In this document: positions 4,778 to 21,753 of the stretch, piece by piece
Numbering within the stretch: position 1 is the first letter of the stretch
Layout of the letters: every line of letters begins with the position of its first letter
Assembly (NCBI GenBank): GCA_004376435.1
Contig: SOJS01000012.1
Location: 1 to 32,144, forward strand
Length of the DNA: 32,144 nt
Direction: 5' to 3'
From: Dehalococcoidia bacterium
GTDB lineage: Bacteria > Chloroflexota > Dehalococcoidia > Dehalococcoidales > JAUVZE01
Notes under the pieces: model-generated
Told to the model about the DNA's origin: nothing
Seen by the model: the letters and a program-made list of their open reading frames with translations, nothing else
The model's database searches: none
Translations under genes and position numbers: made by a program

Positions 4778-5920
4778 GTGAAAGGAAGAAGATTTTTAAC
4801 AGCAGTTGTTGGTATCAGCCTGATGCTGATGCTGGCAGTAGCGCTACCGCTACTGAGCGCCTGTCCAGCCCCAACAACGACTGAAGAGGTTGAACAGCTA
4901 CAAGCAGATTTAGCTGCAGCAAATGCGACGATAGCCGACCTTGAGGCTCAGCTAGCCGCAGTAGGGGTAGAGCCTGAAGTACTGGAGCTGAGAATGCAAC
5001 ACTCCTGGGGTGCTGCCGAAAACCACTTCTTTGAGCAGTATGCCGATATTGTCAGGGAGATGACTGGTGGGCAGATTGACATCGCTGTCTTCTCTGACGG
5101 TGAGCTGGTGAGCTGGGATGAGCTCTCAGATGCAGTAGCGGCGGGGACGGTTGACATAGGGCATACCCACCCTGACTATTATGAGATGGTGGTCCCCGAG
5201 GGTTACCTAGAATCAGCCCCCTATCTGTGGCAAACACTAGACGAGGAAATGGCTGTTATCTATGAATTTGGTGTTGGTGACTTATATGCCGAAGCCCTTG
5301 AGGAGGTCTATGGCTACCATGTGATTGGCTTCCAGCCAGATGACTACGGCGCCCTGATGTTCACCAAGGAAATTAACAGCATAGCTGACATGGAGGGCTG
5401 TGTCATCCAGCTTCTGGATCCTTATGCTTCTATCCTGGCTGAGCTGGCCGGTTCCTCAGCAACCTATCTTGGCCCCGAGGAAATCTACACCTCGCTGGCA
5501 CTGGGCGTTCTTGACGGGGTTGAGTATGGCGGCGCCAAGGCTATGGGAGACATGGGGTTCCATGAGGTAGCCAAGTACTTCGTGCTGCCGCGCCATCAGC
5601 AATCTTGGTTCCCGTTCTACTTCATCAATGCTGATACGTGGGATAGCCTGACTGCTGACCAGCAGGCAATTCTTGAGCAGGCTGTCTACGCTAACGGCAT
5701 CTACATGAGAGCCTTCTATGCCGAGGGAGAAGCAAGCTCTCTGGCGATGATGGTGGATGCTGGCGTTACAGTGTGTTACCTGCCTGATGAGGATGTGGAG
5801 GCTATCTTCCAGAAGACTCTTGAGTGGCTAGAGGAAGACTATGCTGCCATGTCCCCGAGGTGCGCTGAGATAACCGAAAGGGTCTTTGAGGCATTAAGGG
5901 TCTTCGGGCGCATAGACTAG
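4778..5920 (+). CDS. TRAP transporter solute-binding protein (DctP family), lipoprotein with an N-terminal tether module
   Basis: GTG start with AAGGAG RBS. Signal peptide and lipobox LLSAC. Linker PAPTTTEEVEQLQADLAAANATIADLEAQLAA. The DctP-like body follows (RMQHSWGAAENHFFEQYADIVREMTGGQIDIAVFSDGEL...AVAAGTVDIG), and dctQ and dctM lie immediately downstream. Confidence 0.85.
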   Translation: MKGRRFLTAVVGISLMLMLAVALPLLSACPAPTTTEEVEQLQADLAAANATIADLEAQLAAVGVEPEVLELRMQHSWGAAENHFFEQYADIVREMTGGQIDIAVFSDGELVSWDELSDAVAAGTVDIGHTHPDYYEMVVPEGYLESAPYLWQTLDEEMAVIYEFGVGDLYAEALEEVYGYHVIGFQPDDYGALMFTKEINSIADMEGCVIQLLDPYASILAELAGSSATYLGPEEIYTSLALGVLDGVEYGGAKAMGDMGFHEVAKYFVLPRHQQSWFPFYFINADTWDSLTADQQAILEQAVYANGIYMRAFYAEGEASSLAMMVDAGVTVCYLPDEDVEAIFQKTLEWLEEDYAAMSPRCAEITERVFEALRVFGRID

Positions 5921-10773: not shown

Positions 10774-12519
10774 ATGAGAACCAAGAAAGGTTTACTAAGT
10801 CTACTGGTGGTAGCACTGCTGGCGCTCTCTTTGGTAACAGCCTGTCCAGCCCCAACAACGACTGAAGAGGTTGAGCAGCTGAATGCGACGATAGCCGACC
10901 TTGAGGCTCAGTTAGCCGCCGCAAATGCGACGATAGTCGACCTTGAGGCTCAGTTAGCCGCCGCAATGGGAGAGCCGGCAGAGGAAATAGCATACGGTGG
11001 CAGACTGGATGTTGGCTTTACTGCCGGAGAGGGTCTGGAAACTCTGTTATGTGACTCAAACTGGCAGTATACTGAGATGGGATGTGTTTTTTGGCCCCTA
11101 GTATACGACCAATTATGGATTATGGGGCCGGCACCGGATTACGAGGTCCTGCCTATGTTAGCCACCAGCTGGGAAACAGAGGATGGCATAACCTGGACAT
11201 TCTATCTGCGTGAAGATGCTGTCTTCCATGATGGTGTGCCAGTCACAGCCGAGGACGTGGCTTTTACCATTGAGAACTTGCCTAACGCCGACCCGGCATG
11301 GGCTTTTACCGATATAATTACTGAACCGGGAAGTGTTAAAGTTATTGACGATTACACGGTAGAGTTTACGCTGGAGCAATCGATTGGCACTAGATGGCCG
11401 GCTGCTTATTGGGCACCAATACTCCCCAAGCACATCTGGGAGCCCTATACAGACGATATGCTGTCGTTTTCCAACGATGAAGCCATTGGCTCTGGCCCGT
11501 ATAAGCTAAAGGAATTCAAGGCAGCCCAATATGTATGGTTTGAAGCCAATGAAGACTACTGGGGAGGAAGGCCATACTTAGATGAGGTGGTGTTTAGGAC
11601 CTATGGCAGTGAAGACGCCCAGTACATGGCTTTAAAGAGTGGTGAGGCCGACATGATTGGGTATCTAGGTTGTTCGGCAGTGGCTGCGGAGGACTTCATA
11701 GGGCTCGAGGACATGGAGGTTATAGTTTCTCCAGGCATCGGGCTGCAGTGGCTATCGTTTAACCTGTACAAGGATACACCGCTTCAAGACCTGGAAGTAA
11801 GGAAAGCCATTATGTATGGCATAGATAGGGATAGAGTCATAGAAATGGCATTCCTCGGCTATGCCCAGACAGCGGACAGCTTCATATATCCAGAAGTGGC
11901 AGAGCATAATCCAAATTTGCCGCAGTATGCCTACGACGTTGACCTGGCTAATGAAATCCTGGACAATGCCGGCTACCTGGATAGTGATGGCGATGGCATG
12001 AGAGATGACCTTACCTTCGAACTGTTAGCACCCTCAGATTGGACTGACGAGTTAAAGGCAGCGACACTGATTAAGGAGCAGCTTGCCGAAATAGGGATAG
12101 ATATCTCTCTGACGGTGCTGGACCTTGATACCTACTATGAGTATATCTATACGCCGGAGGAAGAGGAATACGAAATTGCTATTGCTACAGAAGAGCCCGG
12201 TCCGCATGGTGAGTGGATGTGGGAATTCTGCCGCAGCTATGAAGCTGGAGGCGAGGGGTGGAATACAGCTTACTGGGCTAACCCTGACTTTGACGAAGCC
12301 CTGGATGCCATGCTCGCCGAGGTAGACGTAGAGCAACGAACGGCATACCTGTATGAGATGCAAATGCTGATGGCTGAGGATCTGCCTTACGGTGTGCTTT
12401 ACAGGCCAGACCTGATAAACCCGGTAAGGACCGATGAGTTTGAAGGCTATGTAGAGACGATGGGGGGAATTTCGACTTGGATTAACCCCTGGACTTACTT
12501 TGAGCTGCACCTGAAATAA
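10774..12519 (+). CDS. ABC transporter substrate-binding lipoprotein, family 5 (Dpp/Opp/Nik-type)
   Basis: Signal peptide and lipobox LVTAC, then the same PAPTTTEEVEQL...NATIADLEAQLAA tether as the TRAP SBP. A large (about 520 aa) SBP_bac_5-like body follows (ATSWETEDGITWTFYLREDAVFHDGVPVTAEDV, GSGPYKLKEF). Dpp-type permeases and ATPases lie downstream. Confidence 0.85.
   Translation: MRTKKGLLSLLVVALLALSLVTACPAPTTTEEVEQLNATIADLEAQLAAANATIVDLEAQLAAAMGEPAEEIAYGGRLDVGFTAGEGLETLLCDSNWQYTEMGCVFWPLVYDQLWIMGPAPDYEVLPMLATSWETEDGITWTFYLREDAVFHDGVPVTAEDVAFTIENLPNADPAWAFTDIITEPGSVKVIDDYTVEFTLEQSIGTRWPAAYWAPILPKHIWEPYTDDMLSFSNDEAIGSGPYKLKEFKAAQYVWFEANEDYWGGRPYLDEVVFRTYGSEDAQYMALKSGEADMIGYLGCSAVAAEDFIGLEDMEVIVSPGIGLQWLSFNLYKDTPLQDLEVRKAIMYGIDRDRVIEMAFLGYAQTADSFIYPEVAEHNPNLPQYAYDVDLANEILDNAGYLDSDGDGMRDDLTFELLAPSDWTDELKAATLIKEQLAEIGIDISLTVLDLDTYYEYIYTPEEEEYEIAIATEEPGPHGEWMWEFCRSYEAGGEGWNTAYWANPDFDEALDAMLAEVDVEQRTAYLYEMQMLMAEDLPYGVLYRPDLINPVRTDEFEGYVETMGGISTWINPWTYFELHLK
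10882..10965 (+). repeat. In-frame 42-nt tandem duplication (2 copies, 1 mismatch) inside the SBP tether
   Basis: aatgcgacgatagCcgaccttgaggctcagttagccgccgca (10882-10923) is repeated at 10924-10965 with C changed to T. Each copy encodes NATI(A/V)DLEAQLAAA, 14 aa or two heptads. Confidence 0.9.
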
Positions 12520-18242: not shown

Positions 18243-18272
18243 TTGACACTTAAGCAGTGATAGAAGTATAAT
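18243..18272 (+). promoter_or_regulatory. Candidate promoter of the rpmH-rnpA-yidD-...-jag operon
   Basis: TTGACA (18243-18248), 18-nt spacer, TATAAT (18267-18272), 33 nt before the rpmH ATG. Confidence 0.5.
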
Positions 18273-18305: not shown

Positions 18306-18446
18306 ATGCCGAAAAGGACATATCAACCAAAGAGGATTCCCAGGAAGCGTGAGCACGGCTTTCGGGCAAGAATGAGCACCCGAGGCGGGCGAGCCATCCT
18401 GAAGGCAAGGCGGCTTAAGGGACGTAAGCGGTTGGTTGTGGTCTGA
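18306..18446 (+). CDS. rpmH: 50S ribosomal protein L34
   Basis: Too short for the ORF track (46 aa). ATG 18306 is preceded by AGGAAG. Translation: [46 protein letters not shown]-stop. Confidence 0.92.
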
Positions 18447-18471
18447 CACCTTGGTTGGCAAGAATGAGGCA

Positions 18472-18846
18472 ATGAGGAAAGAGGAACACCTTACCAAGCC
18501 AGAACAGTATGCCTTAGTCTATAATAAGGGCAGGTCGTGGACAAGCAATTTAGTGGTGATGAAGGCTTTACCCAACGGTCTTGCTTTCGCCAGGTATGGT
18601 TTCTCGGTTAGCAAACGTCTGGGCAAGGCAGTGATAAGAAACCGAATAAAGCGCCGACTTCGCCAAATCCTGCACCTAACGCCACTGGAACCAGGGTGGG
18701 ATATTATCTTTATTGCCCGCTTACCAGCCACCAGCACCGATTATGCCAGCCTTGAGAAATCAATTGCTGATTTGCTATCCCGGGCTCAGTTAATAAAGCC
18801 AGCCAAAGGTAAGGCTTGCCAGCGGCTAAAGGCGGGGGTGTTATGA
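18472..18846 (+). CDS. rnpA: Ribonuclease P protein component
   Basis: It follows rpmH. Basic RNR-type motif KAVIRNRIKRRLRQIL; YGFSVSKRLG. I prefer ATG 18472 over the non-ATG track start at 18436, which would overlap rpmH. Confidence 0.85.
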   Translation: MRKEEHLTKPEQYALVYNKGRSWTSNLVVMKALPNGLAFARYGFSVSKRLGKAVIRNRIKRRLRQILHLTPLEPGWDIIFIARLPATSTDYASLEKSIADLLSRAQLIKPAKGKACQRLKAGVL

Positions 18847-19052
18847 AGAGGTTTGCCTTAGGTTTAATCAGATTTTACCAGCTAGCCATATCGCCAGTTA
18901 TGCTCCCCTCCTGCCGTTTTACCCCCAGTTGCTCCCAGTACACCTACCAAGCTATCTCAAGATTTGGATTTTTTAAAGGGGTCTGGCTGGGAGCAAAGCG
19001 TCTGGGGCGTTGCCACCCCTTCCACAGCAGCGGCTATGACCCGGTGCCGTGA
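18843..19052 (+). CDS. yidD: Membrane protein insertion efficiency factor YidD
   Basis: MKRFALGLIRFYQLAISPVMLPSCRFTPSCSQYTYQAISRFGFFKGVWLGAKRLGRCHPFHSSGYDPVP. ATG 18843 overlaps the rnpA stop (ATGA). Confidence 0.88.
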   Translation: MKRFALGLIRFYQLAISPVMLPSCRFTPSCSQYTYQAISRFGFFKGVWLGAKRLGRCHPFHSSGYDPVP

Positions 19053-19077
19053 AAAGCTAGCTTTTTGGAGAGATTAA

Positions 19078-20229
19078 GTGAGGATTAAAAATAGCGCACC
19101 ATTAGCTATCAAGATATGGCTGCTTGTAGCTTTACTGCTGGCTAGTCTGGTTCTTGTCGGCTGTTTTGGCGTTCCACCCCGGGGGTGGTCAGGAGGAGCA
19201 GTAGCCGAGGATACCCTGTTTCTGGGTTCTATGGATGGCGAGTTCCTCGCCCTGAAGGCAGAAAGTGGTGCTCGTCTGTGGCAGATGCCAATTGAAACCG
19301 AAACTAGCGGCGGTGGCTTTGGCTGTGCGCCAGCACCAACATCAGTCGCTATCTATGGCACCCCAGCAGTTGGGGAGGAGTTGGTCTATTTTGGTGGCTA
19401 TAATGGTAAGGTCTATGCCCTTAATACCAGTTCCGGCGCCTTGAGGTGGGTCTATCCCCGCCAGGGTAATCTGGAGCCGATTGCCGGTGGGGCAGTGGTA
19501 GCGCTAGGTAAGCTCTATATTGGCTCTTCAGATGGCAAGCTCTATGCTCTGGATGCCGCCACCGGTGATGAGATTTGGCAGTTTGAGACCGGAGACAAGG
19601 TGTGGTCAACGCCGGTTATTGACGGCAACAGATTGTTCATTGCTTCCTTTGATAAAAAGCTCTATGCTCTGGATGCCGCTACCGGTGACGAGATTTGGCA
19701 GTTTGAGACTGAAGGGGCTATTGTCTCCACCCCCGTCGTCCATAATAGCCGGGTCTATATTGGCTCCTTTGACAGGCACCTTTATGCTCTAGATGCCGCC
19801 AGTGGCAGAAAAATCTGGCAGTTCCCCAGTGATGATGAGGCTGAGGGCGGGCCGGGAAACTGGTTCTGGGCAAAGCCGATTGTCCATAATAACACCCTAT
19901 ATGCCGTCAATCTTGATGGCAGGGTCTATATCTTAAGTGCCGAAACTGGCAGTGAGGTGGCCAGCACCATTGACATTGGCAGTCCCCTTTCCTCGTGGCC
20001 GGTTTTAGCTGACAGCTCGGTTATTATCGCCTCCGAGGAGGGCACAATATACGCTCTTGATACCGCCACTAACCAAGTTAAGCCGCTGGCTAACCTGGAT
20101 GAGAAGGTCTATGCTCCCCTAGCCGCCAGCGATGGGGTGGTCTATGTTCACACCCAGGAAAACACCCTTTATGCGCTGAGTGCCCAGACAGGGGTAACGC
20201 TGTGGAGCCTGCCACTAAGCAGTAAGTGA
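19078..20229 (+). CDS. PQQ-like (BamB/YfgL-like) eight-bladed beta-propeller lipoprotein
   Basis: GTG start with GGAGAG RBS. Signal peptide and lipobox LVLVGC. Eight repeats of about 40 aa of the type (K/R)LYALDAxTGxxxWQF. It lies 25 nt after yidD and 11 nt before yidC. Confidence 0.8.
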   Translation: MRIKNSAPLAIKIWLLVALLLASLVLVGCFGVPPRGWSGGAVAEDTLFLGSMDGEFLALKAESGARLWQMPIETETSGGGFGCAPAPTSVAIYGTPAVGEELVYFGGYNGKVYALNTSSGALRWVYPRQGNLEPIAGGAVVALGKLYIGSSDGKLYALDAATGDEIWQFETGDKVWSTPVIDGNRLFIASFDKKLYALDAATGDEIWQFETEGAIVSTPVVHNSRVYIGSFDRHLYALDAASGRKIWQFPSDDEAEGGPGNWFWAKPIVHNNTLYAVNLDGRVYILSAETGSEVASTIDIGSPLSSWPVLADSSVIIASEEGTIYALDTATNQVKPLANLDEKVYAPLAASDGVVYVHTQENTLYALSAQTGVTLWSLPLSSK

Positions 20230-20240
20230 GGTAGATTTCT

Positions 20241-21203
20241 TTGGATATCGGGGCAATCTGGGATTTAATTATCTTGCAGCCGATGATAAACGGCCTGATT
20301 GCAGTCTATAGTGCTCTTTTTAGCAACTTCGGGCTGGCTATCATTGTGCTCACCATTATTGTTCGGCTGGTAACAATACCCCTCACCTTAAAGCAGCTGC
20401 GGGCGACCAAAGCCATGCAAGCCCTTCAGCCAAAGCTTACAGAGCTTCAGAAAAAGCACGCCAAGGATAAGGCTAAGCTGGCGCAGGAGCAGATGAGGCT
20501 TTATAAGGAGTCGGGGATAAGTCCCGCCGGCTGCCTGTTGCCTATGCTAATCCAGATGCCCATCTGGATAGCTCTATATCAGTCAATCATAAGACTGCTG
20601 GCGGTAACGCCGGAGGACTTTCTCGGTATTTCCCGCTACCTCTATTCCTGGCCCATGGTGTATTCGGTGCTGCCGCTGTATAGCAGTTTCCTGTGGCTAA
20701 ACCTGGCAACACCGGACAGGCTGCTCATACTGCCAATCCTGGTTGGGGGCACAATGTGGCTGCAACAGAAGATGGTAACACCCACCTCCGCCGACCCCCG
20801 GCAGCAGGCACAGAGCCGAATGATGCTGTGGATGATGCCGCTGATGTTTGCCTTTCTTACCATGCAGTTCCCCAGCGGCCTGGCTCTCTACTGGGTAGCG
20901 TCCAACATTATCACTATTGCCATTCAGTATTATATTACCGGCTGGGGAGGGCTGGCTCCATCAACGGCCAGGAAGCCAGGGGACAGGGATAAGAAGTATA
21001 TCAAGCGCATCAGCCAGGTAGAGCAAGCCCCTTCGGAGGCTCCTGTTGAGGCTGATATTGTAGAAATGAGTTCTGCGGAGGAAGCTGAAGATGAAGGAAG
21101 TGGAGATAAGCGCCAAGAGCGTCGAGACGGCTATCCAGCAAGCCTTAGAGCAATTAGGCGTCGCTCGGGACGAGGTAGAAGTCACCATCCTAAGCGAAGG
21201 TAA
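20241..21203 (+). CDS. yidC: Membrane protein insertase YidC/Oxa1 family, short (monoderm-type) form with a long charged tail
   Basis: TTG start with GTGAGGT RBS. The core begins directly at GLAIIVLTIIVRLVTIPLTLKQLRATKAMQALQPKL...; GISPAGCLLPMLIQMPIWIALY; no large P1 domain. The last 37 codons overlap jag. Confidence 0.9.
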   Translation: MDIGAIWDLIILQPMINGLIAVYSALFSNFGLAIIVLTIIVRLVTIPLTLKQLRATKAMQALQPKLTELQKKHAKDKAKLAQEQMRLYKESGISPAGCLLPMLIQMPIWIALYQSIIRLLAVTPEDFLGISRYLYSWPMVYSVLPLYSSFLWLNLATPDRLLILPILVGGTMWLQQKMVTPTSADPRQQAQSRMMLWMMPLMFAFLTMQFPSGLALYWVASNIITIAIQYYITGWGGLAPSTARKPGDRDKKYIKRISQVEQAPSEAPVEADIVEMSSAEEAEDEGSGDKRQERRDGYPASLRAIRRRSGRGRSHHPKRR

Positions 21204-21753
21204 GACTGGCATCCTGGGTATGGGCGGTGAGGAGGCCAGGGTTAGAGTGACCCTCCTCGCGCCTGAAGAAGAGAGCGAAGTAGCCGAGGCAGCTAAGGAA
21301 GTCCTGGAGATGCTGCTTGATAAGATGGGGATGGCGGCATCGGTTACCCCCGGTGCTCAACCAAAAGTTGAGGGAGAAACTGAAGCCGCCCCAGCTATTG
21401 CCTTTGATATAAATGGCGATGACCTGGGGATTCTGATTGGGCGGCGGGGGCAGACCCTTTCCTGCCTCCAGTATATGGTCAGGCTCATTATAGCTCACCA
21501 GAGAAAGGTCTGGCTGCCCATATTTATTGATGTTGGCGGCTACAAGCAACGCCGCCATCAGACACTGCAGGCTCTCGCCCTGCGCGTAGCCGAACAGGTA
21601 AAGGCCAAGGAGGTGCCATTTACTCTGGAGCCGATGCCAGCCTATGAGCGGCGTATCATCCACATTACCCTAGCCAACCACCCCGATGTCACCACGCAGA
21701 GCATCGGCGAGGGCGAGATGCGTAAGGTGGTTATTCTGCCCCAAGAAAAGTAG
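21091..21753 (+). CDS. jag: Jag/KhpB-type RNA-binding protein (Jag_N + KH + R3H)
   Basis: GGAGGA RBS. N-terminal Jag_N-like MKEVEISAKSVETAIQQALEQLGVARDEVEVTILSEGKTGILGMG. KH-like DLGILIGRRGQTLSCLQYM. R3H-like ERRIIHITL. Canonical position after yidC. Confidence 0.87.
   Translation: MKEVEISAKSVETAIQQALEQLGVARDEVEVTILSEGKTGILGMGGEEARVRVTLLAPEEESEVAEAAKEVLEMLLDKMGMAASVTPGAQPKVEGETEAAPAIAFDINGDDLGILIGRRGQTLSCLQYMVRLIIAHQRKVWLPIFIDVGGYKQRRHQTLQALALRVAEQVKAKEVPFTLEPMPAYERRIIHITLANHPDVTTQSIGEGEMRKVVILPQEK

Follow-up and report, generated by a model that had tools for sequence, protein, structure and literature searches.

The window analyzed here is a 32,144-nt stretch of contig SOJS01000012.1 from a Dehalococcoidia bacterium (GenBank assembly GCA_004376435.1), in which an rpmH-rnpA-yidD-yidC-jag operon carries a gene for a predicted lipid-anchored PQQ-like β-propeller between yidD and yidC. 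All genes of the operon lie on the plus strand. The propeller gene (19078-20229) is a 383-codon open reading frame (ORF) with a GTG start and a stop codon at 20227-20229. Upstream, a σ70-type promoter-like site, TTGACA-18-TATAAT, which matches the consensus at 12/12 positions and is identified by this match only (18243-18272), precedes rpmH (ribosomal protein L34; ORF at 18306-18446), the first gene of the operon. This is followed by rnpA, encoding the RNase P protein (18436-18846; Pfam Ribonuclease_P, 1.5e-25), and by yidD, encoding the membrane protein insertion efficiency factor (18816-19052; Pfam YidD, 3.8e-31; TIGR00278, 92.4 bits versus a cut-off of 40). The yidD stop codon (19050-19052) and the propeller GTG are separated by 25 nt, within which a Shine-Dalgarno-like GGAGAG can be read 5 nt upstream of the GTG (19067-19072). 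Only 11 nt separate the propeller stop from the TTG start of yidC (20241-21203), which encodes a short-form YidC of 320 aa with its 60KD_IMP core at residues 30-233 (Pfam, 2.5e-55). The putative ribosome-binding site of yidC, GAGG at 20228-20231, 9 nt upstream of the start, overlaps the propeller stop codon, suggesting translational coupling of the propeller and yidC. The jag/khpB gene (21091-21753; Pfam Jag_N, KH and R3H) overlaps the tail of yidC by 113 nt in a different frame (21091-21203). No terminator was found between yidD, the propeller gene and yidC in a plus-strand consensus scan, and the sole plus-strand terminator-like site down to the end of jag, a weak consensus match with 5 pairs, lies inside rnpA (18682-18699). 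The Pfam matches of the neighbors and the sequence itself agree with an earlier reading of the window (hereafter the original prediction), which had described this operon, the inserted propeller gene and the gaps on its two sides.

The propeller protein begins with MRIKNSAPLAIKIWLLVALLLASLVLVGC, in which a basic n-region and a hydrophobic core precede the lipobox LVLVGC. The signal peptide (residues 1-28) together with the lipobox is encoded at 19078-19164, with the codon of Cys29 at 19162-19164. The lipobox Cys is invariant in our alignments A1 and A2 and occurs in 95-100% of the sequences in each of three clade groups among 135 operon copies. Both Lgt (1.7e-52) and LspA (1.7e-38) are encoded in the same genome. 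Judged from its sequence, the 383-aa product is a predicted Lgt/LspA substrate with the features expected of a bacterial lipoprotein. It belongs to the PQQ_2 family (PF13360; 5.6e-56, 190.3 bits versus a gathering threshold of 27.6), and an AlphaFold2 (AF2) model built from a 66-sequence alignment (pLDDT 91.3, pTM 0.86) contains 32 strands in the DSSP assignment, that is, eight four-stranded blades at residues 41-379 (19198-20214), besides a helix at residues 7-28 that corresponds to the signal peptide. The mature protein would have ~350 residues, and only ~10 residues lie between the predicted lipidated Cys and the propeller. These results bear out the eight-bladed PQQ lipoprotein that had been read from the ORF.

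At the DNA level, nine copies of the blade motif occur within the gene. Two adjacent blades, 3 and 4, are near-identical (19519-19714), with 76-nt units at 19519-19594 and 19639-19714 sharing 84% identity at a period of 120 nt, which suggests that one blade was recently duplicated or that gene conversion took place between the two. Blades 1 and 2 are joined by a Gly-rich loop, SGGGFGCAPA (19306-19335; pLDDT 71-75), containing Cys83, which is present in 93% of the order-level (Dehalococcoidales) copies and 50% of the class-level copies; the loop is missing in the Anaerolineales-like clade. In Dehalococcoidales, where Cys83 is a conserved free Cys, the loop is sometimes doubled or carries a second Cys. 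The residues conserved family-wide in the 135 operon copies are the lipobox Cys and the W, Y, G, P and A residues of the blade framework, with no enzyme signature. In one orthologue (P0003, 446 aa, 57% identity), which also has the lipobox at its N-terminus, a hydrophobic helix followed by a basic tail is found at the other end (…WGFLIAIAVISIILVMAMSALRKRRKA), indicating that the C-terminus of the propeller can lie at the membrane.

The source genome is a reduced Dehalococcoidales metagenome-assembled genome (MAG) of 0.79 Mb, in which YidC gave a single match, the window's own, and the operon propeller is the only PQQ_2 gene. Omp85/BamA (PF01103) was not found in this genome, which is 89% complete, nor in any of the 301 Chloroflexota genomes searched (0/301), 244 of them of high quality, while seven diderm control genomes were positive. 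In the window, the TRAP binding protein (4778-5920) and the ABC binding protein (10774-12519) carry lipoprotein signal peptides (…LLSAC and …LVTAC, respectively). The apparently monoderm host proposed in the original prediction is consistent with these lipoboxed binding proteins and with the Omp85 result, and the lipid-anchored binding proteins and short-form YidC on which that proposal had rested are both present.

To what extent the arrangement is conserved was examined in related genomes. The gene order yidD-propeller-yidC-jag was found in all 130 Dehalococcoidia loci examined except three that are cut by a contig end. These loci comprise 30 order-level loci returned by the orthologue search, all with the complete order rpmH-rnpA-yidD-propeller-yidC-jag (30/30); 80 named Dehalococcoidales/Dehalococcoidia contigs from the species-representative collection, 77 of which have the same order from rpmH to jag and three of which are the end-truncated ones; and 20 further Dehalococcoidia loci, all with the propeller order (20/20) and including single-contig genomes of 1.4-1.9 Mb. 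Within the order, a propeller orthologue was detected in 57 of 61 relatives representing ~50 families; of the four in which none was detected, three have a completeness of 70-74% and one of 94%. The propeller order also occurs in 19 of 20 loci from other Chloroflexota families, which were chosen for their near-full-length propeller matches. This second carrier clade includes Anaerolineales, since an exact look-up of the L34 protein assigned two of its families to that order and identified one as Candidatus Brevefilum fermentans. Across the ~150 loci the location of the propeller gene is constant, exactly between yidD and yidC and in no other slot of the operon. The insertion is therefore not unique to one genome, and the conservation at the junction that the original prediction had proposed to check extends over Dehalococcoidia and an Anaerolineales-containing clade.

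As a contrast group, yidD was located in 60 genomes of Chloroflexota families with weak or no propeller matches. In 50 of these, Herpetosiphon for example, yidC follows yidD directly. The other ten comprise five in which yidD lies away from yidC, four with a divergent propeller at the junction, and one (L210) in which the stop-to-stop frames holding yidD and yidC overlap and no propeller is present. At L153, L185, L188 and L189 (family f70, genomes of 4.4-5.3 Mb) and at L190 (f102), yidD adjoins neither yidC nor rnpA, so that the operon, elsewhere conserved, is broken up in these families. The first gene of the operon varies as well: at seven loci of the Anaerolineales-like clade (L134, L135, L137, L141, L143, L150 and L187) rpmH encodes an L34 protein of 56-77 aa with a C-terminal extension, the length in the window and in Dehalococcoidia being 45-46 aa.

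In a maximum-likelihood tree of concatenated RnpA, YidD and YidC from 110 genomes, the presence of the propeller requires a single change. The split concerned has an SH-aLRT support of 94, and shuffling the labels 500 times never gave so few changes on this flanking-gene tree. The split inside Chloroflexota between carriers and non-carriers is thus explained by one change. This tree is unrooted, so the single change may be read as either one gain or one loss; it is built from flanking genes rather than being a species tree, and it contains loci that were selected using the trait. In the propeller tree, 13 non-operon paralogues form a separate clade (support 97) and the operon copies, which have a single origin in the sampled tree, group like their flanking genes; E. 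coli BamB joined two long branches there, a long-branch artefact that makes its position uninformative. Both trees are best explained by a propeller gene that has long belonged to the operon and was passed on vertically, with retention in every sampled descendant, including genomes of less than 1 Mb.

Moreover, natural fusions join the propeller to either of its two neighbors. A search with YidD, propeller and YidC as one query retrieved P0113 (462 aa; L211:4001-5389), in which a complete YidD (TIGR00278, 82.7 bits versus 40) continues, with no intervening stop, into a hydrophobic segment that bears the lipobox LLVTAC and leads on to the propeller; yidC and jag lie downstream on the 2.28-Mb contig. 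This architecture is common to five clusters at ≥86% identity. Likewise, an AT-rich Dehalococcoidia genome (G215) encodes YidD and a divergent propeller in one open frame of 479 codons (L180:1432-2868). In both fusions the internal hydrophobic segment is still followed by a lipobox; cleavage by LspA at this site, should it still occur, would produce a membrane-anchored YidD and a lipidated propeller in 1:1 amounts. No fusion with YidC was present among the best 120 matches of the three-part query. A search restricted to the YidC part yielded P0140 (669 aa), which consists of a signal peptide, an LLSAC lipobox, the propeller and a 60KD_IMP core (residues 395-605) and lies in an rpmH-rnpA-yidD-[fusion]-jag locus on an NCBI MAG contig (L225:1084-3093). 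In three relatives of P0140 (L142, L145 and L134) the propeller and yidC ORFs are in the same frame and one stop codon apart, indicating that such a fusion is easy to make. The source assemblies of the fusion ORFs are GCA_964546745.1 (contig CAZJLN010000017.1) and ENA ERZ26167216. No fusion of the propeller to any operon neighbor besides YidD and YidC was seen. Known YidC structures place the N-terminal segment of the core outside the cell, and the topology of both fusion types is consistent with YidD in the cytoplasm, a segment crossing the membrane and the propeller outside, its C-terminus meeting the N-terminal segment of YidC. Other composite forms of YidC were also encountered. P0138 (487 aa), whose source label is the sponge Geodia barretti, is a YidC-Jag fusion, and the YidC of family f76 genome G081 (L172:1-1494, minus strand) has a PBP_like_2 domain inserted within its 60KD_IMP core; the core at L207 is also split.

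Expression data are available for one cultured relative. In Dehalococcoides mccartyi 195, the transcripts of DET1041 (PQQ repeat protein) and DET1039 (Jag) correlate with r = 0.93 (PMC5102406), and the numbering of the two genes fits the order PQQ-YidC-Jag, with YidC presumably encoded by DET1040.

The conserved slot between yidD and yidC and the rare fusions to one or the other suggest that the propeller probably works with the YidC insertase as a previously undescribed partner on the outer face. The original prediction had proposed an extracytoplasmic partner, scaffold or chaperone of the YidC/YidD machinery, and it gains support from the conservation, the lack of detectable Omp85, the fusions and the D. 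mccartyi transcripts, the physical or functional link to YidC being read from gene context only. On this basis we consider it rather likely that the propeller is an extracytoplasmic module of the YidC/YidD insertase. The propeller would share one transcript with YidD and YidC, its translation probably coupled to that of YidC. After export by the Sec pathway and lipidation of Cys29 by Lgt and LspA, it would stay tethered to the exterior of the cytoplasmic membrane, taken to be the only membrane of the cell. Three positions would then be occupied, the cytoplasmic side by YidD, the bilayer by YidC and the exterior by the propeller. There the propeller may dock on the outer face of YidC and provide a platform to which the exported loops and tails of clients, or else partner factors, could bind or be held. 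In doing so, it would fill the place of the P1 domain of Gram-negative YidC and of the lumenal propeller of EMC1 beside EMC3.

Several observations weigh against this assignment to YidC, and most of them favor its main rival, a general envelope scaffold that shares the operon for steady housekeeping expression and might function in S-layer or wall attachment, in handling of lipoproteins or exoproteins, or as a sensor platform. About half of the sampled Chloroflexota families lack the propeller at the junction, and YidC therefore has no general need of it. Nor does the architecture of YidC covary with the presence of the propeller: YidC is of the short form in carriers and non-carriers alike, its extra length being mostly in C-terminal tails, and no P1-like N-terminal extension of YidC was found in the non-carrier lineages (51 loci; median extension ~0). 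Surface-anchored PQQ propellers, held by lipid or by transmembrane (TM) segments, are common elsewhere in Chloroflexota genomes, some of them being lipoproteins encoded far from yidC, which argues that the fold is a general-purpose scaffold. The operon itself mixes unrelated functions, as it also encodes L34 and the RNase P protein, and adjacency alone is accordingly weak evidence. In addition, the propeller-YidC fusion is represented by one cluster with two MAG sequences and its relatives differ by a single in-frame stop, so that a sequencing error or a trivial loss of the stop codon is possible. An envelope scaffold would, however, leave unexplained the occupation of exactly one slot in ~150 loci following one ancient event, the overlap of the yidC ribosome-binding site with the propeller stop, and the restriction of the fusions seen to YidD and YidC among all the neighbors. 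We regard this explanation as unlikely, yet as the one that most deserves to be taken seriously beside a YidC module.

The close coupling of the genes may instead reflect dependence of the propeller on the insertase, if the lipoprotein were a substrate that especially requires YidD/YidC for its export or folding. Co-transcription and translational coupling would suit such a client, as would the retention of a signal peptide with lipobox even in the fusions. The usual route of lipoproteins, however, is export through Sec and maturation by Lgt and LspA with no need of YidC, and neither the stable fusions to both YidD and YidC nor the strict retention in genomes below 1 Mb would be explained, making a client role improbable.

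The likeness to BamB (YfgL) raises a further alternative, that the propeller is a relic subunit of β-barrel assembly in a cell that has a hidden outer membrane or has kept some BAM-like function. Both proteins are eight-bladed PQQ-like propellers of ~370 residues with an N-terminal lipobox, and BamB serves a membrane-protein insertase as a non-catalytic accessory scaffold. E. coli BamB is the best natural structural match (Foldseek TM-score 0.72-0.80, 22-23% identity), the BamB equivalog TIGR03300 is the top NCBIfam match of every family member tested, and some public pipelines label relatives as outer membrane protein assembly factor BamB. The window protein nevertheless scores below both curated cut-offs (TIGR03300, 249.1 bits versus 285.2; NF008351, 150.8 versus 423), and eight other operon copies match BamB with 79-203 bits through local blade-to-blade stretches. 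The term BamB-like used in the original prediction thus stands for the fold and the lipid anchor and fails for family membership. Against PDB, the propeller family profile scored far better with the archaeal PQQ propeller 3hxj (2.9e-75), and also with 7evf (4.1e-50) and 7eq5 (4.2e-46), than with BamB (~1e-30). The E. coli BamB residues that we take to contact POTRA3 of BamA are L192, L194, R195, D246 and D248; in a BLASTP alignment with E. coli K-12 BamB, L192 and D246 fall in deletions of 5 and 11 residues, respectively, and L194, R195 and D248 are replaced by K, V and V. With these contact loops deleted, scores below the cut-offs and no Omp85/BamA in the phylum sample against positive controls, a true BamB was rejected and is very unlikely. 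The propeller also differs from BamB in that its anchor must be in the cytoplasmic membrane and its gene lies between yidD and yidC. In E. coli K-12, bamB is flanked on one side by der and on the other, 10 nt upstream, by yfgM (L212:5475-7284), which is annotated as an ancillary subunit of the SecYEG translocon. A BamB-type gene beside a gene for an inner-membrane translocon accessory is therefore not unique to Chloroflexota.

A PQQ-dependent dehydrogenase or another cell-surface enzyme was likewise rejected and is hardly to be expected, since the partial matches to Pfam PQQ (PF01011) and TIGR03075 are outweighed by scores far below the cut-offs (TIGR03075, 113.6 bits versus 480; TIGR03074, 65.2 versus 832), by a mature length of ~350 residues versus ~570-600 residues in the PQQ dehydrogenases among the PDB matches, and by family-wide conservation that is limited to framework residues, the sole non-framework feature, the Cys83 loop, being confined to one order.

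YidC is the universal bacterial membrane-protein insertase, and the prevailing view for monoderms is that it works by itself or together with Sec. If the propeller is indeed a module of the insertase, a conserved, separately encoded partner on the outer face would change the picture of monoderm YidC for a whole branch of the phylum, including the organohalide-respiring Dehalococcoides used in bioremediation. For the evolution of the envelope, it would represent a BamB-like lipoprotein that is retained without BamA and wired instead to the inner-membrane insertase. In agreement with the remark in the original prediction that such a role was undescribed, our literature searches found no paper that connects bacterial YidC with a propeller of the PQQ or BamB-like type, and they found DET1041 mentioned once, in the expression network (PMC5102406). 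The present analysis adds the division of the phylum by one change, the Anaerolineales carriers, the YidD-propeller and propeller-YidC fusions, the residue-level comparison with BamB and the co-expression link in D. mccartyi.

Beyond BamB, three known systems can be compared with the propeller. To our knowledge, no archaeal or monoderm surface PQQ propeller occurs in a yidC operon or is tied to an insertase. Such surface propellers, including 3hxj, Bacillus YxaL and the domains of AfsK-type Ser/Thr kinases, are nevertheless extracellular, non-catalytic scaffolds, and the closest natural sequence relatives in PDB are 3hxj, then 7evf and 7eq5; AfsK-type kinases are among the NCBIfam matches. YxaL is reported to be secreted (PMC6483160).

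The second system is the P1 domain of Gram-negative YidC, an extracytoplasmic domain between the N-terminal anchor and the five-helix core. The order of domains in P0140 reproduces this layout with the propeller in place of P1. P1 itself is a β-sandwich rather than a propeller, and the propeller protein gave no match to the P1 family (PF14849) even at E-values up to 10. In the window, moreover, the module is a separate polypeptide predicted to be held by lipid. An add-on at the P1 position is also seen in three Anaerolineae YidC proteins of 445-509 aa (P0143, P0148 and P0150), which carry an N-terminal DUF11/DUF7927 region before the insertase core.

The third system is the eukaryotic EMC. EMC1 is larger, at ~1000 residues, and comprises two propellers as well as a C-terminal TM helix of its own. 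Matches to Pfam Beta-prop_EMC1_N (PF25293) were all below the cut-off of 34 bits (12.9 bits for the window protein and 22.1-27.8 bits for two orthologues), the similarity being generic, and a specific sequence kinship to EMC1 was rejected. The repeats of EMC1 in the lumen are PQQ-like, and EMC3 is a member of the Oxa1/Alb3/YidC superfamily (PMC7188443). While the pairing of propeller and YidC in Chloroflexota is deduced from genes, the two systems would share a PQQ-like propeller on the non-cytosolic side of a complex with a YidC-superfamily insertase, which makes EMC1 the closest functional analogy. It is possible, if speculative, that the Dehalococcoidia/Anaerolineales branch has a three-part holo-insertase in which the propeller, as a stoichiometric subunit, receives or shields the exported parts of clients, forming a counterpart of EMC1-EMC3 that is either convergent or very old. 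For bacterial YidC, no dedicated subunit outside the cytoplasm would have been described before it. The propeller operon would then offer a simple bacterial system for the question posed by EMC1, the role of a PQQ-type propeller beside an Oxa1-family insertase.

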